From NCBI GenBank assembly GCA_013343275.1, contig CP046106.1, positions 192,001 through 256,000 on the forward strand: DNA of 64,000 nt, written 5' to 3'. The position numbers and the translations under genes were made by a program. The DNA comes from Candidatus Nanohaloarchaea archaeon (GTDB taxonomy: Archaea > Nanohalarchaeota > Nanosalinia > Nanosalinales > Nanosalinaceae). Below are positions 44,801 through 51,648 of the stretch, piece by piece (the first letter of the stretch is position 1; each line of letters begins with the position of its first letter). The notes under the pieces are model-generated. The model saw nothing but the letters and a program-made list of their open reading frames with translations. It was not told the DNA's origin and searched no databases.

Positions 44801-44892
44801 TGCTTATCGGCTGCGATGAGTCAAAATCAAAGACTGAAGGGAAGGAGCCTGTGTTCTTCAGCTTCTTCTGGCAGCTGGTGGGCTTCCAGTGA
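41890..44892 (+). CDS. Giant secreted Asp/Cys-rich protein with Ca-binding-like DxDGDG motifs
   Basis: Signal peptide MSIRKALAIA; DNDGDGLVDG..DPGC, CGDGI, DADGDG. Confidence 0.75.
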   Translation: MSIRKALAIALLLSVLAGTISAYQFTGGSEDTGTGPPERPPQPSACLDSSDNDGDGLVDGKDSDSDNDGTPNWQEVNADGPDPGCSKPYDYDDSEANMYDLDASWIFGTRFSAPTPQDSSVFYGSELITNGSSTTVHPDTVSTSNSIIEYYVEGSSDNWGGGDKKSVEISNSENRPQGTMTGTTTTGVEGSAELIDAPYNSSSDGQCGDGIENSDENNLDCPEDYGLPDDAGTTKSTSSETLSDRFNAKVSQWNVNNANGVSVGDPNNQANNGEYLTSKNNNDDLADNIEYRFSNSGQGLVAPEAEGQKTDDISGSFPYTSDLQSGTQANAGETTDQVVQDQQWTDVPDYYLKDADGDGAPDELWMVYPEKVGETKMGSVTDYDLTGDKNVETWEVTGSEGTCSGANCSTSGSVCSSVDQGTDTKYTLESETTTTVSDSGNEQYYADSSGSYQHSKENTNLNQVSVEVTHHPGYNTETVDDDGCGGYTTTGSCTSSQGCSSGSTPVASEVSDQDIATGQTSNTITYRYEDIELHTAKVFDLNPAENPSYSPAFPTNALFEGDTFKYGTEAYSRSNIKYNAFNGDAYFAYTVDKDSKTLGNDEALTSSSYHIQVDGTAFESVRDYEKTWDVDGPEGQSDGYIAVLHRKGYLGSGQVELQGKSNRLMATEITDGNSAVDIVQPSDALGEVGLAGGCNDPFTHCIAAVDVMFRNINNWRNPKDPSVQTGSEAYPTAVTYRHDIENTNRSLGVCKMYQELDPDAAIGSNYGSNTDSPTQSSDKRCAGDTATEFWVTMEGPEIDESAISTHHLEGTADRITDCLWYGVDVPEGTVRTSGTQEYSQYELGGYSPDGEVCLAIDSSGESFTQNGKTYEETLPSNDPGDDVPYDNYDYDDDGTVEEVGGEWYDLDNKRINQYLRNNGNILVTNGDPDNASQIAYYWRQNENPSHPDFNPKGLGSGDNIGVTLEDDCGPLLIGCDESKSKTEGKEPVFFSFFWQLVGFQ

Positions 44893-47810
44893 GAAAAGCA
44901 GTTCTTGTAGCTTCCCTACTGCTTTCCCTGTTCGTAGCTCCTGCTTCAGGTCAGATGTATATGGAGGACATGTCAGGAACGCAGAGCGACTGGAGTTGCT
45001 ATACTACAGGAAGATCGCTGGATAAATGTACTACAGATGCTACCGGAAGTTACTCCACTCCAGAACAGTCGGCAAAGGCCACGGGGAGATACGAGATCTG
45101 TGGTAAAGGAGGCATAACGAAATCTTTCAATTTCTCTCGGCAGCCAAAGTATCTGAGCTTTGACTACAGAATAAGTCTAGACAGCTGGGGCAAGGGAACT
45201 ATATACATCAACGACTCCTCCGGAGTCACAGAGCTTATTGACAAGAAAAGAACAGGTTCAACCTATGATTCTGGCTGGAGAAGCGAAACATTTGTAGTCA
45301 GCTCACAGGACAAAGACTTCTCTCTCACCGCAGGAAGTATAAGCAGCTCCAGCTTCTGCGACAGCAAGCCGGAAGATAGATCATGGAAAGTATGGGTAGA
45401 CGATATCAAGGTAACATCCAGCGCAGACAAACCAAATGAACCTTCCTTCCGACAGCCAGAGGATGGAGCAACGGCAACACGCACAACAGTAGAACTCTCA
45501 ACAAGGATAACAGATCCTAACGACGACACTATGAACGTAAGTTTCCACAGAGCCGATGGCACACTGATAGAGAACGAAACGGCTCCCAGTGGAGCAACAG
45601 TCTCAGTATACTGGGGAGGTCTAAGTGATGGAGGGAGTTACAGTTGGTACATCAAAGCCTGTGATGGAACCGGCCAGTGCAGAATTACCGATACCTGGAG
45701 TTTTACTGTAGATAAGGCTGCAGAGAAAACATATACTGGAGGAGGCCTGATGGATGAAGACTATACAAAGATCGGTGAGAACAGGAGCGTAGGAAACTAC
45801 TACTTTGAGGGCTATGTTAACAAGCTGGAGGAGGCTACCAACCAGCTGGAGGATGGAATGGATACAAGTTACTACAGTCCAAGCGATTACGGTATCTGGT
45901 CGGACTCCGATGGCTCTCAGGGGAGTGCAGATCAATGGGCCATCACAAAGTACCAGAACTGGTCGATATCGAACAGAGGGATTCCATATCCTCCAGGCCC
46001 AACAGTAATCTCTCCGCAGATAAGACAGGGGGGTCTTTACCATCCAAGCTACAGCAGCGAGGGAGGAACATATTATCACAAGACCTACGGCGGGCCATAT
46101 CGAAGCGTTCCTACTAATCTAGGCGCCTTCACCTCTCCAAGTGTTTCCAAGAAGGACAAGGTAATGGGCAACTCGTTCGCTGCTGTAGCTGCACAGAACT
46201 TTACAGGTGCTTTCGGGCCTGTTCGAGAAGGTGATGGAGTATGGGTAGATCCTGATGATATACGGTCAATGAATGAATTATTGGAGGGGCCTTGGCTACA
46301 GAAACTTGTATACAATACTGACCTTACCGGTCCTGACATGGGTCTCGGCTTCAATCTTGGAGATAACCGAGGAATAAGCTATCGTTCAGGATTTGGCTCT
46401 CCAAGATCCTACGTTATGTACGGTAATGTCTACTTTGAAGGAGAAGCGGATAAAGTTGATAATGACGGAGATGGAGTTGTAGACGAGGAATGGAACAGCA
46501 ATGGAACAGTCGGTGAATCCAAGCCTTATATAGAGGCCCCGATGTGTGGTGATGATCAATACGAATACCTGCTTGAAGAGCTAGGAGAGTCAAAGAGATC
46601 GGTAGCAGGAGATGGAAAGTATGCCTGTACTGATTCACAGAACGTCTGTATAGATATGAGTGCGGAAGGAAGTAAGGTATTCGGCCTAGGAGTTTACCGG
46701 CAGACAGATGAGCCTGATGAAGCCTTCGGGAGATCCAAGCTTGATAAGGAGGCCTGTGCAGTGATAGGCACCGATACAGTTGCTAAGTGGTATGATCAGG
46801 ACTTCAAACAGAGGCTGTGCCGCGACAACACTCTCTACGGTAATAGCGGCGTAAGATGGTTCTCGGAAAGTGAGATCGCACAGCACCCAGCAGCGTTCAA
46901 AGGAGGAATAGACGACGACTTCAACGAATTTATAGAGGAAAACAGGGCGCTGGAAGGAACAACCTCGCAAAACCTCCAGTCAGATCCTACAAGAACCTAC
47001 ACATCTTCCAGCAGCCTGGGCCAGTACAGTCCCGTACCGACAGGTAATGCGGATCAGAGAAACGGTGTCTCAAATACTACAATAGCAACACCTGGCTTCT
47101 GTGGTGGAGATGACTCATCAGAATACCTGGTAACGCAGGAAGGCGTAACGAGTCTCATTCAGACCAACAACTCCATCATAGGAGTTGCTTCACAGCCGGG
47201 CGCATGTATACTTGATGGAGCCAAGTATCCTGAAGTTTCCAGCGACAAAAGGGAGCTTTACAGTCCTGGAGCGCAGATAGAGTTCGATCTCGGAAGCGAT
47301 ACCAAGATGATATCATGTTACGGCGGAGCCTGGTACCAGAAATGGCCTGTAGTATTCAGAAAAGATACTGTAGATGTGCCTCTAGGAACCTCTCGACTAG
47401 CACAGTTCAAGGTAATCAACGTGGAGACAGAGGCAAAAACCTTCAATATCGAGCTTAAGGACGACAGCTCCAGTAACTGGAACAACGCATGGTCATACCT
47501 ATCCCAGGAAGATGCCACAAGATCCGATACAGTAACAGCGACTATAGGCGCTCAGTCATCCAGGACATACACAGTTAAACTCTACGGAGGGAACTCAAAC
47601 GTAGACAACGCACAGATCACGGTAAGAGCTGCCTCAGCAGATGGCACAATATCCGGTGACGACAGCATCCGAATTGATGTAACAAAGGCCCCTAACTCCA
47701 CGCAGACCGGAGCGACTTCCAGCAACGCAGTACCCGGAATAGGCCTACCACAGATAGTAGTGCTGCTTATGCTATCCTCAACAATGTTCCTCTACTGGAA
47801 CAAACCGTAA
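44889..47810 (+). CDS. Giant surface protein with a PGF-CTERM-like anchor
   Basis: Signal peptide; Ig/FN3-like segment; DNDGDGVVDE; C-terminal S/T linker, then VPGIG and a TM helix. Confidence 0.75.
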   Translation: MRKAVLVASLLLSLFVAPASGQMYMEDMSGTQSDWSCYTTGRSLDKCTTDATGSYSTPEQSAKATGRYEICGKGGITKSFNFSRQPKYLSFDYRISLDSWGKGTIYINDSSGVTELIDKKRTGSTYDSGWRSETFVVSSQDKDFSLTAGSISSSSFCDSKPEDRSWKVWVDDIKVTSSADKPNEPSFRQPEDGATATRTTVELSTRITDPNDDTMNVSFHRADGTLIENETAPSGATVSVYWGGLSDGGSYSWYIKACDGTGQCRITDTWSFTVDKAAEKTYTGGGLMDEDYTKIGENRSVGNYYFEGYVNKLEEATNQLEDGMDTSYYSPSDYGIWSDSDGSQGSADQWAITKYQNWSISNRGIPYPPGPTVISPQIRQGGLYHPSYSSEGGTYYHKTYGGPYRSVPTNLGAFTSPSVSKKDKVMGNSFAAVAAQNFTGAFGPVREGDGVWVDPDDIRSMNELLEGPWLQKLVYNTDLTGPDMGLGFNLGDNRGISYRSGFGSPRSYVMYGNVYFEGEADKVDNDGDGVVDEEWNSNGTVGESKPYIEAPMCGDDQYEYLLEELGESKRSVAGDGKYACTDSQNVCIDMSAEGSKVFGLGVYRQTDEPDEAFGRSKLDKEACAVIGTDTVAKWYDQDFKQRLCRDNTLYGNSGVRWFSESEIAQHPAAFKGGIDDDFNEFIEENRALEGTTSQNLQSDPTRTYTSSSSLGQYSPVPTGNADQRNGVSNTTIATPGFCGGDDSSEYLVTQEGVTSLIQTNNSIIGVASQPGACILDGAKYPEVSSDKRELYSPGAQIEFDLGSDTKMISCYGGAWYQKWPVVFRKDTVDVPLGTSRLAQFKVINVETEAKTFNIELKDDSSSNWNNAWSYLSQEDATRSDTVTATIGAQSSRTYTVKLYGGNSNVDNAQITVRAASADGTISGDDSIRIDVTKAPNSTQTGATSSNAVPGIGLPQIVVLLMLSSTMFLYWNKP

Positions 47811-47842
47811 ACTATTTCAAAATTCTCTTTCTCTTTTACTGT

Positions 47843-47896
47843 ATGAACGGTGGCTACGTTCCGCAGCTTCCTCAACAAAGCTGCATTGCAGGATAA
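47843..47896 (+). CDS. uORF1, putative leader peptide MNGGYVPQLPQQSCIAG
   Basis: Read by hand; shares GGYVP with uORF2 through synonymous codon differences. Confidence 0.6.
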   Translation: MNGGYVPQLPQQSCIAG

Positions 47897-47951
47897 ACAG
47901 TATTCTCAACATTTCCTTAGCCACTGCTCTACCCATTCTAACGTGATTTCT

Positions 47952-48017
47952 ATGACACAATCAACCAAAGGTGGATATGTTCCACACGACTGGTTACGCT
48001 CAGTCGACACGCAATAA
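47952..48017 (+). CDS. uORF2, putative leader peptide MTQSTKGGYVPHDWLRSVDTQ
   Basis: Read by hand; GGYVP motif; CGTGAT SD-like sequence upstream. Confidence 0.6.
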   Translation: MTQSTKGGYVPHDWLRSVDTQ

Positions 48018-48037
48018 TGCGTTCAGAAGAACGCATT
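48016..48037 (+). promoter_or_regulatory. Perfect 9-bp hairpin covering the uORF2 stop and uORF3 start
   Basis: AATGCGTTC-AGAA-GAACGCATT. Confidence 0.65.
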
Positions 48038-48097
48038 CAAACACAACTCAAAACCTTTCAACAGAAAAATTCTCAGGCCGGTCGCTATGAAACGTAG
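48017..48097 (+). CDS. uORF3, connector peptide MRSEERIQTQLKTFQQKNSQAGRYET
   Basis: Coupled to uORF2 by TAATG; overlaps the ProRS ATG out of frame. Confidence 0.45.
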   Translation: MRSEERIQTQLKTFQQKNSQAGRYET

Positions 48098-49313
48098 CGA
48101 ACTATTTGCCACAACCTCCAAGGAATCGGAGGCTGAGTTCGACTGCCGCAGTGCAGAACTTGCCGTAAAGGCCGGGCTGGTCCACAACTATGGTTCCGGA
48201 ACTTTCGGATTCACACACCTGGGCCGGAAAGTACTGGACAATATAGAAGAAGTAATCAGGGATGAGATGGACGAGATAGGCCAGGAAGTGACGATGAACA
48301 TCCTGCAGAACTCGGAGATGTGGGAGAAGTCCGGGAGGTGGAAGAACTTTGAGGGAGACGAGTTCTTCACACTGAAGAACCGTGACAACAGAGATTTCAC
48401 GATCGCGGCGACGCATGAAGAAGCCTCTGTCGAACTTGTCCGGAAGAAGATTCGATCCTACAGAGACCTGGACTTCATCATCTACCAGATAGGTCGAAAG
48501 TTCAGAGACGACAGAGCCAGGAAAGGCCTTCTGCGTGGGAAAGAGTTCTTCATGAAGGATGCCTACAGCTTCCACGCCGACAGAGAGCAACTTCAGGAAA
48601 CCTACCATGAAATGATTGAGGCCTACACCACGATCTTCGAGAAACTAGGCCTTGAATTTTCCAGAGTCTCCGCTGAAAACGGTTCAATGGGAGGCAGTCA
48701 GAGCCATGAGTTCATGGCTGAATCAGAGATCGGTAGCGACACATACCTCAAATGCGTGGATTCGGAGTGCAGATACGGCGCCAAAGATCTGGGTGAAGAG
48801 AAATGCCGTGAATGTGGCTCTGAACTTCAGGATGTCAGCGGCATCGAGATAGGCCATCTGTTCAAGCTTGGCAAAAGATACAGCTCCAAAATGGATCTGA
48901 CATTTACCGATGAAGATGGAGAGGAGAAAGATGTCATCATGGCCTCCTACGGAATCGGTGTATCAAGGCTGATCGCAGCAATAATCGAGCAGAACAACGA
49001 TGAAAACGGCATCACCTGGAACAGTAAGGTGTCTGCCTTTGACTGCTCGATCATCATTGCAAGACATGAAGATGCGGCAGTTGAAAAGGCGGAAGAGCTG
49101 CACGATAAACTTTCCGAAAGAGGCCTTGAAGTCCTGCTCTTCGATGAAGGATCTGTCGGTGAGAAGTTCGCTGAGTCCGATCTAATGGGGATCAAACGGA
49201 AGGTCATATTGGGGAATAACTACCTGGAGAACGATGTGATTGAGGTAGAGAAGAGGGATGGACGAACCTTCCAGGCCGACTTTGAGGAGATTAAGGAGGT
49301 GGTATCCTCCTGA
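48087..49313 (+). CDS. proS: Bacterial-type prolyl-tRNA synthetase paralog (no full INS editing domain), proline-free
   Basis: THEE, YQIGRKFRD, GLLRGKEFFMKDAYSFH, MGGSQSHEF, GIEIGHLFKLG, YGIGVSR, anticodon-binding domain. Confidence 0.88.
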   Translation: MKRSELFATTSKESEAEFDCRSAELAVKAGLVHNYGSGTFGFTHLGRKVLDNIEEVIRDEMDEIGQEVTMNILQNSEMWEKSGRWKNFEGDEFFTLKNRDNRDFTIAATHEEASVELVRKKIRSYRDLDFIIYQIGRKFRDDRARKGLLRGKEFFMKDAYSFHADREQLQETYHEMIEAYTTIFEKLGLEFSRVSAENGSMGGSQSHEFMAESEIGSDTYLKCVDSECRYGAKDLGEEKCRECGSELQDVSGIEIGHLFKLGKRYSSKMDLTFTDEDGEEKDVIMASYGIGVSRLIAAIIEQNNDENGITWNSKVSAFDCSIIIARHEDAAVEKAEELHDKLSERGLEVLLFDEGSVGEKFAESDLMGIKRKVILGNNYLENDVIEVEKRDGRTFQADFEEIKEVVSS

Positions 49314-49316
49314 AAT

Positions 49317-50051
49317 TTATTCAATTTCTATATGCCTGGTATGGTTACATTCCTCGCATTGGACCTCTATTTTACCGTACCTAGTTTTAGATCCGATCGT
49401 GGTCAGACCTGAGTATTTGAACTTGCTGTTGTGCCTGTCGTTTTTGAAGTACCACTCGTTTCCACAGGCCGGGCAGTTCATCTCGACTTCTGTCGCCCTT
49501 CTCTCCGTTCTTTCCTTGTGCCTTTTCTTTTCCTCTTTTTTCTTCTCCTTTCTTTTCTTTTCCTTGAACTCTTCGGTTTTGTTTATGGATTCGCCTTTAC
49601 TGAAGCTGGAGGGATACTTTTTCTGGGCTTTTTTACTGTGTTTTCTCCCGTTTCCATAGACTAGGAAACCTAAGAGTCCACTTGCTCCTGCTATAGGTAT
49701 CCAGAGTATCCACATCAGGATAGGGTGAAGGCCGCTTAACGCGAATCCTGAAAGTACAGGTCCTCCGATACCGATTCCGGCTGCCTGTTTCTTTCTTTTC
49801 TCGCCGTGTTCTCTTTTCTCCTTTCCAGGATCCGAACCGCATTCAGGACATTCATTCAGGTCTGCATCAATAATTTCGCCACATTCCTCACATGCTGCTT
49901 TCCTTACTGTCCCGCATGAACTGCATTTTCTATCTCCATCATCGAACCGTTCGCTGCATTCCGGGCAGAAAAGCCGTTTCTGACCGCAGAAAGAACAGAA
50001 CCATTCATCGTCTCCTATCTCTTCATCGCAGTTACTTGATCCATAACACAT
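49317..50051 (-). CDS. Multi-zinc-ribbon membrane protein
   Basis: Repeated CxxC motifs, two TM helices, Lys-rich coil, C-terminal CPAC/CEEC. Confidence 0.7.
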   Translation of the reverse strand: MCYGSSNCDEEIGDDEWFCSFCGQKRLFCPECSERFDDGDRKCSSCGTVRKAACEECGEIIDADLNECPECGSDPGKEKREHGEKRKKQAAGIGIGGPVLSGFALSGLHPILMWILWIPIAGASGLLGFLVYGNGRKHSKKAQKKYPSSFSKGESINKTEEFKEKKRKEKKKEEKKRHKERTERRATEVEMNCPACGNEWYFKNDRHNSKFKYSGLTTIGSKTRYGKIEVQCEECNHTRHIEIE

Positions 50052-50169
50052 ATTCAGGTTAATTTTTCCTCAGCCTTATGTAGTTTTTTCAATCTAGCTG
50101 GATTTTTCAGGGAAAAAGTAACTTCCAGGCAGGCAAGAAAATTAAGAATTACTCCTCAGAACTTATTGT

Positions 50170-51648
50170 ATGAGCCAGGAACTCGGTATCACGGTAAAGA
50201 AAGATCAGAACCCTTCAGAATGGTATACGCAGGTAGTCCAGAAAGCAGAGCTAGCGGATTACGCACCTGTCAAGGGCTGCATGATAATCAAGCCGTACGG
50301 CAACAAGCTATGGGAATCAATCAAGGAAGACTTCAACTCCAAGATCACAGATACCGGGGTAGAAAACGCATACTTCCCACTATTCATACCGGAGAGCTAC
50401 CTGGAAAAAGAAGAAGATATTGTAGAAGGGTTTGATCCTGAAGTCGCATGGGTAACACATGGAGGCGACAAAGAACTGGAGGAAAGACTTGCAGTAAGGC
50501 CTACATCTGAAAGCATAATCGCACCATACATGGCTGACGAAGTAAGAAGCCACAGAGACCTGCCTCTAAGACTCAATCAGTGGGCCAACGTTGTACGCTG
50601 GGAAGCCACAGACACAAGGCCTTTCCTGAGGACCAGAGAGTTCCTCTGGCAGGAAGGACACACAGCACATGCAACAGAGGAAAGTGCTGACGAAGAGACT
50701 ATGTTGAGGCTGGAGCAGTATCAGGAAGTAATCGAAGATCACCTTGCCATTCCTTCGATCCTGGGTTACAAGCCGGAGCATGATAAGTTCCCGGGCGCCA
50801 AATACACTACAACAATCGAAACCTTGATGCCGGATGGAAAAAGTATTCAGTCGGGAACATCTCACCAGCTGGGCCAGCACTTTGCCGAGGCCTTCGAGAT
50901 AGAGTTCGAGGATGAGGACTCGGATACTCAGACTGCGTGGACGACGTCCTGGGGCCTCTCAACAAGGACGATCGGTGCTTTGATCATGGCACACGGTGAC
51001 GATGATGGCCTTAGATTGCCTCCTCGTGTTGCACCGACACAAGTGGTCGTCGTACCTATCTATCAGGAGGACAATCAGGAAGAAGTAGTTGAATACGCAG
51101 AAAAAGTGACGGAAGAGCTCGAAGCTGAAGGCCTGAGAGTAGACCTCGATGACAGAGATCACAGAACTCCTGGCTACAAGTTCAACGAATGGGAGTTGAA
51201 AGGAGTACCTCTCAGAGTAGAGATAGGGCCTAACGAAGTAGAAGACGATGCAGTTACACCTGTTAGAAGAGACAGCGGCGAGAAAAACATGGGCCAGGAC
51301 AGAGAAGAGTTCGTGGAGGAAGCCGAAGAAGTACTGGAAAACATCCAGGAATCACTTTACAACGAGTTAGAAGAGTATCTGCATGAAAATATCAGAGAGG
51401 CCGACTCGAAGAACGAGATTCTGGCGACAATAGGCAAGAACCGTGGATACGTCAAGGCCCGATGGTGCGGAAAAGAGGAATGCGAGGCCGAAGTGAAGGA
51501 CGAAGTCTCTGCCGAGATCGTAGTGCTACCGTTCCGAGAGGACTCCAAGCCTGCTACTATCCAGGCCTCCGAAGAACACATCGACGGAGAATGCGCAGTC
51601 TGCGGTGAAGAAGCCGAGAGATGGGCCTACTTTGCGAAAAATTACTGA
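50170..51648 (+). CDS. proS: Archaeal/eukaryotic-type prolyl-tRNA synthetase
   Basis: RPTSE, QWANVVRWE, FLRTREFLWQEGHTAH, SWGLSTR, C-terminal AKNY. Confidence 0.95.
   Translation: MSQELGITVKKDQNPSEWYTQVVQKAELADYAPVKGCMIIKPYGNKLWESIKEDFNSKITDTGVENAYFPLFIPESYLEKEEDIVEGFDPEVAWVTHGGDKELEERLAVRPTSESIIAPYMADEVRSHRDLPLRLNQWANVVRWEATDTRPFLRTREFLWQEGHTAHATEESADEETMLRLEQYQEVIEDHLAIPSILGYKPEHDKFPGAKYTTTIETLMPDGKSIQSGTSHQLGQHFAEAFEIEFEDEDSDTQTAWTTSWGLSTRTIGALIMAHGDDDGLRLPPRVAPTQVVVVPIYQEDNQEEVVEYAEKVTEELEAEGLRVDLDDRDHRTPGYKFNEWELKGVPLRVEIGPNEVEDDAVTPVRRDSGEKNMGQDREEFVEEAEEVLENIQESLYNELEEYLHENIREADSKNEILATIGKNRGYVKARWCGKEECEAEVKDEVSAEIVVLPFREDSKPATIQASEEHIDGECAVCGEEAERWAYFAKNY

Follow-up and report, generated by a model that had tools for sequence, protein, structure and literature searches.

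What controls a prolyl-tRNA synthetase (ProRS) that contains no proline? The question is raised by a stretch of 64,000 nucleotides (nt) from a Candidatus Nanohaloarchaea archaeon (assembly GCA_013343275.1, contig CP046106.1, positions 192,001 to 256,000), which we call the window and to which coordinates refer unless a locus is named. The genome, a single contig of 915,886 bp with 47% G+C, belongs to a family of small archaeal genomes. In the window the gene proS2, encoding the proline-free synthetase ProRS2, is preceded by a leader with short upstream open reading frames (uORFs). An initial annotation had described this leader as three coupled uORFs and had proposed a ribosome-stalling attenuator that senses prolyl-tRNA. 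We found that two of the three uORFs are conserved, that each carries a short cassette resembling a recoding signal around a Pro codon, and that the +1 frame after each cassette is open, free of Pro codons, and leads to the next cassette or to the start of the gene. The observation is real and well beyond chance. This frame staircase, which the initial annotation had missed, points to +1 frameshifting followed by termination-reinitiation.

ProRS2 scored 404.5 bits against TIGR00409, the family of bacterial-type ProRS (cut-off 306.7); the match falls into two segments and leaves out the editing insertion. The Pfam families tRNA-synt_2b and HGTP_anticodon, which represent the class II core and the anticodon-binding domain, both matched, and the nearest solved structures were bacterial ProRS. 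By these matches ProRS2 belongs to the bacterial-type (family II) prolyl-tRNA synthetases, lacks the editing insertion and has predicted activity. Among the 866 open reading frames (ORFs) of at least 150 amino acids (aa) in the genome it is the largest without Pro, against a median Pro content of 3.5%. A search for orthologues in 70 genomes of the order found them at 63-70% identity, all in one family, and our set of 15 distinct ProRS2 loci comprises the window, 11 family loci and three hypersaline metagenome contigs. ProRS2 contains no Pro in any of the 15, whereas the other homologues read (33-52% identity, from haloarchaea, other archaea and bacteria) contain 12-18. In an alignment of 12 orthologues we also observed cysteines at the position of the bacterial editing insertion, with C223 nearly invariant and C228, C240 and C243 invariant, which suggests that a small zinc-ribbon may replace the insertion.

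The leader and its gene have the following features in the window.

47813-47822, + strand: TATA-like box TATTTCAAAA of the leader promoter; from its position, transcription would begin at the uORF1 ATG or immediately upstream of it
47843-47896, + strand: uORF1, putative zero-frame sensor ORF of step 1, encoding MNGGYVPQLPQQSCIAG and a stop
47849-47864, + strand: motif 1, consisting of GGTGG (47849-47853), a 4-nt spacer, GTT (47858-47860, putative P-site codon), CCG (47861-47863, putative hungry A-site codon) and C
47848-47856, + strand: 5' arm of helix P1, spanning uORF1 codons 2-5 and the Shine-Dalgarno (SD)-like element
47918-47926, + strand: 3' arm of helix P1, an anti-SD-like box of consensus AGYCRCYRG, forming 9 bp with the 5' arm, one of them G-U
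47859-47951, + strand: +1 path b, which a slip at motif 1 would enter; open and Pro-free to the uORF2 ATG, in the frame of uORF2
47943-47947, + strand: SD-like GTGAT of uORF2, within the block GTGATTTCTATG, which is nearly invariant in the alignment
47952-48017, + strand: uORF2, putative zero-frame sensor ORF of step 2, encoding MTQSTKGGYVPHDWLRSVDTQ and a stop
47970-47985, + strand: motif 2, consisting of GGTGG, a 4-nt spacer, GTT (47979-47981), CCA (47982-47984) and C
47971-47975 and 47981-47985, + strand: local hairpin H2 at motif 2, GTGGA pairing with TCCAC
47980-48090, + strand: +1 path c, which a slip at motif 2 would enter; open and Pro-free, with its TGA (48088-48090) overlapping the ProRS2 ATG as ATGA (in the ORF map, a GTG-started ORF at 47971-48090)
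48047-48063, + strand: A-rich block CTCAAAACC + TTTCAACA, resembling a pair of transcription factor B recognition element (BRE) and TATA box, possibly an internal promoter or else a different element at the RNA level
48087-49313, + strand: proS2, the putatively regulated cargo; class II synthetase of 408 aa with no Pro

When uORFs of the type GG-x-V-P were sought upstream of homologues, both uORF1 and uORF2 were found at all 15 Pro-free ProRS2 loci. uORF1 was kept as M-x-G-[GDE]-[YCSH]-[VI]-P at these 15 loci and in four leaders that precede other cargo, giving 19 leaders in total. A further match in the genome collection (L120) has a leader identical to that of locus L035 and stands outside the 15. 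Upstream of the nearest Pro-containing homologues (L043 and L044) there was nothing like the uORFs. On both strands of the whole genome, uORF1 and uORF2 were the only ATG-started ORFs of at most 41 codons that contain G[GDE][YCRSH][VI]P. The distance from the uORF2 stop to the gene start ranged from 45 to 246 nt across the 15 loci. The initial annotation had also noted that the two GGYVP copies of the window, GGT GGC TAC GTT CCG and GGT GGA TAT GTT CCA, differ by synonymous changes only, and indeed all three differences lie at third positions.

What is conserved around the Pro codon is a cassette of nucleotides, with the consensus [G/T]GTG[G/A], 4 nt, [G/A/C]T[T/C], CCN; the search expression for the motif was composed after the first loci had been inspected. 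The 15 ProRS2 loci contain 31 such steps. GGTGR stands 4 nt before the GTT position in 30 of the 31 motifs, the exception being TGTGA, and the proposed P-site codon is GTT in 27, ATT in two, CTT in one and GTC in one. The codon preceding it is Y-N-Y in every motif. The CC of the Pro codon is invariant with a free third base, and 27 of 31 motifs have C immediately after the codon. All 31 motifs thus have NTT or NTC followed by CCN, a sequence at which slow decoding would depend on starvation. The peptide is only loosely conserved, as G-[GDE]-[YCSHR]-[VIL]-P, where the motif varies it does so at zero-frame wobble positions (CCN, G[GA]N), and a zero-frame stop follows 3-16 codons past the Pro codon. 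By this pattern the motif is a coding zero frame overlaid with the nucleotides of a putative recoding signal, and not a conserved peptide. The sensing Pro codon is CCT in uORF1 of 13 of the 19 leaders and CCA or CCG in uORF2 of all 19; the two steps may sense different tRNAPro isoacceptors, or CCA and CCG may be kept only for hairpin H2. The tRNAs encoded include Pro-UGG and Pro-GGG as well as Val-GAC, Ile-GAU and Leu-GAG, the G34 readers of GUU, AUU and CUU.

The spacing of the cassettes is conserved in frame and varies in length. All 16 steps at the ProRS2 loci have a motif-to-motif distance of 1 mod 3 (85, 88, 97, 100, 103, 109 or 121 nt), as do three of the four leaders with other cargo. 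Between the last motif and the gene start the distance takes 12 distinct lengths from 75 to 306 nt and equals 0 mod 3 at 14 of the 15 loci. As a consequence of these rules, the +1 frame after the uORF1 Pro codon is the frame of uORF2, and the +1 frame after the uORF2 Pro codon ends on the gene start as ATGA, GTGA or TTGA. This NTGA overlap was seen at 14 of the 15 ProRS2 loci, and also in two leaders of the remaining set, L207 (before proC) and L205 (before a ProRS2 fragment).

The frames themselves differ sharply in content. Taken together, the +1 paths comprise 998 codons with a single stop, at the end of the path in L035, and no Pro codon. The +2 frame has 52 stops and 34 Pro codons in 968 codons, and the zero frame 85 stops and 54 Pro codons in 967. 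In dinucleotide shuffles the chance that a segment would be both open and Pro-free ranged from 0 of 2000 up to 0.36, depending on the segment. Locus L036 has three cassettes and three +1 steps, and its middle cassette has no in-frame upstream ATG; the last path there runs for 98 Pro-free codons, a frame that was open in 0.2% of shuffles. In the proC leader L207 both spacing rules and a GTGA overlap are kept. In L211 a distance of 108 nt breaks the 1 mod 3 rule, yet the TGA of path b overlaps the uORF2 ATG. The +1 frame is open, and the selection apparent on it suggests that it is also used.

We asked which genes carry this leader. A DNA pattern of the two motifs gave 13 matches in 12 of the 50 genomes of the family, and a reversed control pattern gave none. 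A looser pattern applied to 70 genomes of the phylum gave no new convincing locus and two control matches; its one extra match, in G015 (contig C30), looks like chance. In genome G028 the leader precedes a 517-residue proC-proB fusion (pyrroline-5-carboxylate reductase joined to glutamate 5-kinase), after which comes a proA-like aldehyde dehydrogenase gene with an ATGA overlap, and in G015 it precedes a second proC-proB fusion. No further proC gene was found in the 50 genomes, and the leader stands before both of these. The fusions are poor in Pro, with six in the first 457 residues of one and seven in 407 of the other. A conserved Pro-free protein of approximately 75 residues is what the leader runs into in G070 (a second copy), G072 and G033. 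All three copies of this protein in the 50 genomes lie directly after a leader, in frame with the last +1 path, at the following positions of their own loci.

L036, 2724-2939, - strand: small Pro-free protein
L211, 1193-1429, - strand: small Pro-free protein
L205, 352-567, - strand: small Pro-free protein, a copy without its own ATG

The protein has the pattern ..LLEE..Y..L....LYK.....G.V....G......L.EL..IVDRYLG.. and matched no Pfam family at E <0.01 and no NCBIfam family. It could be a genuine starvation-specific trans-frame product. Decayed forms of ProRS2 were also observed: L205 (G033:C47) has lost all but the C-terminal anticodon-binding part, which follows the leader and the small protein; L011 and L039 (G014:C3) are split, duplicated pieces, where one open frame has Pro; and L012 (G036:C23) is a C-terminal piece at a contig end.

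The cargo of the leader thus falls into three classes, ProRS2, the proC-proB fusion and the small Pro-free protein, and like an attenuator the leader precedes genes for the synthesis and the charging of one amino acid. Cargo of this kind is needed when proline is short, which argues that the leader senses the supply of proline and is on under shortage. A proline-responsive leader of this direction is the most likely function, to judge from the genes it precedes. The initial annotation could not read the direction of control, and it is the identity of the cargo that points to one. Its proposal of a Pro-sensing element was borne out to the extent that the link to proline stood, through ProRS2 and proC, while three coupled uORFs with hairpin switching were not supported, since uORF3 is not conserved and its hairpin is facultative.

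Some leaders contain further insertions. A pair of hairpins, GAAACTT..AAGTTTC and GAAACTC..GAGTTTC, is inserted in L035 and L120, which precede ProRS2, and in L207, which precedes proC; the pair sits between uORF2 and the A-rich block. At that same place L034, L007 and L202 have partial duplications of motif 2. The occurrence of an identical hairpin pair under different cargo suggests that leaders recombine or move between genes. The cassette, which stands before a backup synthetase, genes of proline synthesis and the small protein, is portable within one family of host-dependent nanohaloarchaea.

We next considered how the leader would be transcribed and where ribosomes would enter it. All 19 leaders have an A/T-rich TATA-like octamer 28-38 nt before the uORF1 ATG, and 18 of them have no SD 5-mer upstream of that ATG. 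uORF1 is probably leaderless or nearly so, with transcription beginning, as the position of the octamer suggests, at or close to its ATG. The uORFs look translated, on the strength of their conservation, the TATA-like box and the SD-like GTGAT with ATG of uORF2. In this genome the 16S rRNA ends in ..GGAUCACCUCC, to which GGTGR is complementary. The organism makes use of SD sequences: an SD 5-mer was present upstream of 20% of crude gene starts, compared with 6% in an inside-gene control, and the spacing from GGTGA to the start peaked at 6 nt; at the cargo start, GGTGA lies at exactly 6 nt in 11 of 15 ProRS2 loci. All leaders read also have a TCAAAAYC block 37-54 nt before the cargo start, in a reading frame that differs between loci, and this block with its TATA-like part accompanies the leader to all cargo types. 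In the window, near-repeats were observed at 47813-47827, AAAC-TA-TTTCAAAA-TTCTC, and at 48050-48074, AAAC-C-TTTCAACAGAAAAATTCTC.

The pairings named in the initial annotation, 47848-47856 with 47918-47926, the arms within 47863-47884 and those within 48016-48037, were all confirmed in the sequence. Consensus folding of 11 leaders with RNAalifold recovered helices P1 and H2 only, and folds of single sequences agreed. P1 is conserved: it extends from uORF1 codons 2-5, including GGTGR, to the anti-SD-like box approximately 65 nt downstream, both sides have changed in four of its 10 pairs, and 87% of cells are paired. Over the whole two-helix structure a control with slid partners gave 31-55% pairing, and none of 500 shuffles reached the observed score. 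In 12 of 14 leaders no other segment formed a stronger duplex with motif 1 than the box. H2 (GGTGGA/TCCACC) is 96% paired over 14 sequences, with one-sided, wobble-compatible changes only. P1 begins one base past the uORF1 AUG, and in the absence of a ribosome P1 and H2 hide the SD-like elements; the two helices may limit spurious binding of 30S subunits, or may confine initiation at uORF1 to a co-transcriptional window.

Other structures proved to be local. In addition to the conserved features, the window has the following.

47863-47869 and 47878-47884, + strand: local hairpin GCAGCTT/AAGCTGC, inside a 24-nt insertion unique to the window locus
48016-48024 and 48029-48037, + strand: perfect 9-bp hairpin at the uORF2 stop, facultative (-11.3 kcal/mol, z -5.2)
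48017-48097, + strand: uORF3, Pro-free, starting in TAATG and overlapping the ProRS2 ATG at 48087; outside the conserved system
48082-48100, + strand: 8-bp hairpin around the ProRS2 start codon (dG -13.2, z -2.6), specific to the window

The three uORFs of the initial annotation (47843-47896, 47952-48017 and 48017-48097) are all present. uORF3 does not extend beyond the window as a conserved third uORF, with a comparable ORF at only two of the 15 loci. The hairpin at 48016-48037, which had been given a part in the proposed attenuator, is likewise present and facultative: it has a dG of -6 kcal/mol or below at eight of the 15 loci and is absent at four, and where it is strong (five loci, z -3.1 or below) the sequence of its arms varies by locus. 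A conserved hairpin over the cargo start was considered and rejected, with z -2.6 in the window and -1.4 to +1.0 at the other 14 loci. The anti-SD-like box was also rejected as a general sequestrator of the cargo SD, a strong duplex being found only in L034, L035, L038, L010 and L009; in L001, L008, L042, L006, L005 and L041 the duplex was near the control mean. Neither RNAalifold on 11 leaders nor folds of the start region at all 15 loci gave a conserved structure over the cargo's ribosome-binding site, and no pair of terminator and anti-terminator was found. An attenuator that works by switching hairpins, as first proposed, is not supported by these results.

Our best reading of the leader is hungry-codon +1 frameshifting followed by termination-reinitiation, to which we assign a probability of roughly 0.55. 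Transcription would start at or near the uORF1 AUG. Ribosomes would translate uORF1, and others would initiate independently at the SD and AUG of uORF2. Each uORF would act as a cassette of SD-like GGUGR, 4 nt, a P-site GUU and a single A-site CCN followed by C. With Pro-tRNAPro plentiful, the Pro codon would be decoded and the ribosome would stop 3-16 codons on, at least 45 nt before the gene; such a stop would be too distant for reinitiation, leaving the gene off. With Pro-tRNAPro scarce, the A site would be empty and the ribosome would slip by +1, aided by a duplex between GGUGR and the anti-SD that is 2 nt tighter than the usual 6-nt spacing of initiation. A slip to TTC would ease the spacing of GGTGR toward its optimum. 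After a slip in uORF1, the open Pro-free frame would lead into the frame and cassette of uORF2, and after a slip in uORF2 it would end in a UGA overlapping the gene start. There the terminating ribosome would reinitiate, and the cargo would be translated using no proline (ProRS2) or very little (ProC-ProB). Serial steps would steepen the response. It is an evenly balanced question whether the staircase operates in full, such that Pro-tRNA must be missed at each step before a ribosome reaches a gene that can be translated without Pro.

Several points weigh against this reading. The loci are kin, so that counts across them overstate independence; the distinct lengths of the frame-keeping indels are the most independent evidence. 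Two loci deviate. In L035 the SD itself supplies the TGA at which the path stops, 9 nt short of the start. In L202 (G015) a CCC lies four codons into path c and there is no clean overlap; this leader (G015:C17) also contains a run of N between two copies of the same 55-nt sequence, an assembly gap at a repeat, so that its last step is not readable with confidence. After slipping, tRNAVal(GAC) would pair with UUC at the cost of a first-position mismatch, which is poorer than the CUU to UUU slip of prfB, and SD-like stimulators of frameshifting are not known from archaea. A GTG stands in the +1 frame of all motifs, so that the +1 ORFs could start on their own. An SD and an ATG belong to uORF2 itself, and the need for uORF1 is therefore not obvious. 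In the window the SD of proS2 is degenerate. Finally, the BRE/TATA-like block 37-54 nt before the cargo start could drive a separate transcript of the gene.

Four other explanations of the leader were weighed. The ribosome might simply pause at the single Pro codon of uORF1, uORF2 or both when Pro-tRNA is scarce and, with no frameshift, block P1 or H2 or shield the RNA from a termination or decay factor, so that the cargo is transcribed or translated. This has precedents in mgtP of Salmonella (PMC3641672) and, in the accessible part of their description, in mycobacterial polycysteine short ORFs (10.1101/834739). It would also account for the conservation of uORFs with Pro as their first and usually sole sensing codon; a ribosome on uORF1 would melt the covarying helix P1, and a T-rich tract GTTTTCTTAG adjoins the anti-SD-like box. 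It leaves unexplained the +1 frames that are open and Pro-free over 998 codons, spacings that keep frame, a last +1 frame that ends on the cargo start, and the third cassette of L036, which has no start. There is moreover one Pro codon per uORF and no run, no conserved structure on the cargo SD or start, and no conserved terminator-like hairpin with a U run. We therefore regard stalling without frameshifting as possible and, on balance, unlikely. Alternatively, the GTGs of the motifs might be true starts, with ORF c handing ribosomes to proS2 by termination-reinitiation and the Pro codons near the ORF ends modulating the hand-over. Every motif does have a GTG in the +1 frame, the GTG-started ORFs 47850-48017 (b) and 47971-48090 (c) appear in the ORF map, and NTGA overlaps stand at the cargo start. 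However, these GTGs lack an SD at the usual 6 nt, the SD-like element being the GTG itself, and the conserved ATG of uORF1 and the conserved SD and ATG of uORF2 belong to the zero frame. As +1-frame codons the motif would show CNC, its middle base free, which is unlike coding constraint. A ribosome paused at Pro would also cover the GTG, so that shortage would shut the cargo off, the opposite of what genes of proline synthesis need. Such a relay is in our view improbable.

The remaining two explanations give the uORFs little or no part in control. The TCAAAAYC and TATA-like block might be a promoter of proS2, with the uORF unit separate from it. The block does resemble the leader promoter of the window (AAAC-TA-TTTCAAAA..ATTCTC compared with AAAC-C-TTTCAACA..ATTCTC), and at several loci its TATA-like part lies 28-31 nt from the start, about the distance of a leaderless promoter. 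Yet the block is also present where the leader precedes unrelated cargo (proC, the small protein), and the GGTGA at 6 nt (11 of 15 loci) and the GTG or TTG starts (10 of 15) both need a leadered mRNA. A frame link from last motif to start, kept over 12 lengths, would be pointless if the units were independent, and we consider a separate promoter highly improbable as the explanation. The last explanation, in which the uORFs are incidental to an element acting as RNA (a riboswitch, a T-box-like tRNA sensor or a protein-binding site, for example), would draw on the strong nucleotide conservation of GGTGR, GTTCC, the box and GTGATTTCTATG and on the covariation of P1. Against this, only two short helices are conserved, no Rfam family matched 46500-50500 on either strand at E <=10, and start codons, stops, frame-preserving indels and avoidance of Pro are marks of translated sequence; we give this explanation almost no weight.

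To our knowledge, amino-acid sensing by a leader ORF is classic in bacteria and essentially undocumented in archaea. We rate the present system as a combination of known kinds, namely leader-ORF sensing, sensor frameshifting and termination-reinitiation. In the prfB sequence of E. coli a UAU codon occupies the E site of the shift. The prfB site combines an SD with CUU_UGA_C, and effects of both the E site and the SD are described in the available text of PMC5009743. As far as that text goes, the leader cassette is like prfB in having a short zero-frame ORF, an SD-like element complementary to the 16S end a few nt ahead of the codon at which the shift takes place or is proposed, an NUU at the P site for a G34 tRNA to read, a Y-N-Y codon in the E site, and an A-site codon, in the leader only putatively slow, followed by C; frameshift frequency would in both cases report the supply of the factor that reads the A site. 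Unlike prfB, the A-site codon here is a sense codon for Pro that would sense an aminoacyl-tRNA, not a stop that senses a release factor, and the +1 frame would encode no product and would only deliver the ribosome to the start of a separate gene. The leader also has two or three cassettes in series, an archaeal host, a spacer of 4 nt rather than 3 and poorer re-pairing of the Val tRNA, and its frameshift is a prediction from sequence.

T-box leaders of Firmicutes sense uncharged tRNA and switch on aminoacyl-tRNA synthetase genes, including extra copies, as well as biosynthesis genes. They are a functional analogue of the present leader, in which sensing would go through the ribosome and not through direct binding of tRNA to RNA, and with which no Rfam family matched. 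The leader resembles those of trp, his, phe and mgtP in that a short ORF, standing before genes of one amino acid, would report the charging of the tRNA for that amino acid; the Pro-codon ORF of Salmonella mgtP is described, in the portion of PMC3641672 that is accessible, as sensing Pro-tRNAPro. It differs from classical attenuators in that its ORFs lack a run of regulatory codons (only some zero-frame tails have a second Pro), and in having no terminator and anti-terminator pair, an archaeal host, and a conserved frame relay in place of alternative hairpins. In the ermC leader, according to the accessible part of PMC5009743, a ketolide-induced frameshift takes ribosomes past the leader stop into the spacer and activates ermC. 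There the trigger is a drug and a hairpin at the ribosome-binding site is unfolded, whereas here the trigger would be an empty A site and the outcome delivery to a stop/start overlap, in a leader with no conserved structure at the ribosome-binding site. The mycobacterial polycysteine short ORFs, as presented in the available part of 10.1101/834739, are leaderless sensors before several loci of one amino-acid pathway, and to that extent the arrangement is shared: a leaderless sensory first cistron, and one module before several loci of a pathway. On the same account they use a Cys tract and a stalled ribosome that blocks a duplex sequestering the ribosome-binding site, unlike the single Pro codon per ORF and the lack of such a duplex here. 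Termination-reinitiation at ATGA overlaps is reported for archaea and bacteria in the accessible portion of PMC6728339, and the proS2 leader shares with those cases, as given there, a 4-nt stop/start overlap with an SD just upstream (GGTGA at 6 nt in 11 of 15 loci); it differs in that the upstream frame has no evident start and would be reachable only by recoding.

A 2021 review (PMC8211752) lists one demonstrated programmed frameshift in Archaea, a -1 case. For hungry-codon frameshifting that gives starvation-specific products, the available text of PMC5009743 states that 'no examples are known', and the frameshift relay, if true, would fill this gap. We found no description of this system or of a Pro-free ProRS in the open-access papers searched, supplementary files aside, and none among them that joins prolyl-tRNA synthetase with Nanohaloarchaeota. 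We put it at an even chance that this is the first circuit in any domain to read the shortage of one aminoacyl-tRNA directly as +1 frameshifting, in a staircase of two or three steps. The leader in any case offers a clear, conserved and testable archaeal candidate for leader-ORF amino-acid sensing, in tiny host-dependent archaea. ProRS2, purged of Pro at 15 of 15 loci, would be an extreme form of rescue enzyme, built without the amino acid that is scarce. As a portable cassette of approximately 250 nt, the leader could serve as a proline-responsive switch in haloarchaeal genetics.

The genes around the leader and proS2 in the window are as follows.

44889-47810, upstream of the leader: secreted protein of 973 aa with no Pfam match and a C-terminal anchor of the PGIGLPQIVVLLML.. 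type
49317-50051, - strand: divergent gene for a zinc-ribbon membrane protein, between ProRS2 and the canonical ProRS
50170-51648, same strand as ProRS2: canonical archaeal-type ProRS (TIGR00408), 492 aa with 24 Pro

The canonical ProRS starts 860 nt downstream of ProRS2, and the same neighbourhood was seen in genomes G020 and G032. On the other side, the gene upstream of the leader carries a tail of the PGIGLPQIVVLLML.. type in L008 and L006 too, and the other loci have different upstream neighbours. These differences between loci in what lies upstream indicate that the leader and its gene move as a unit.

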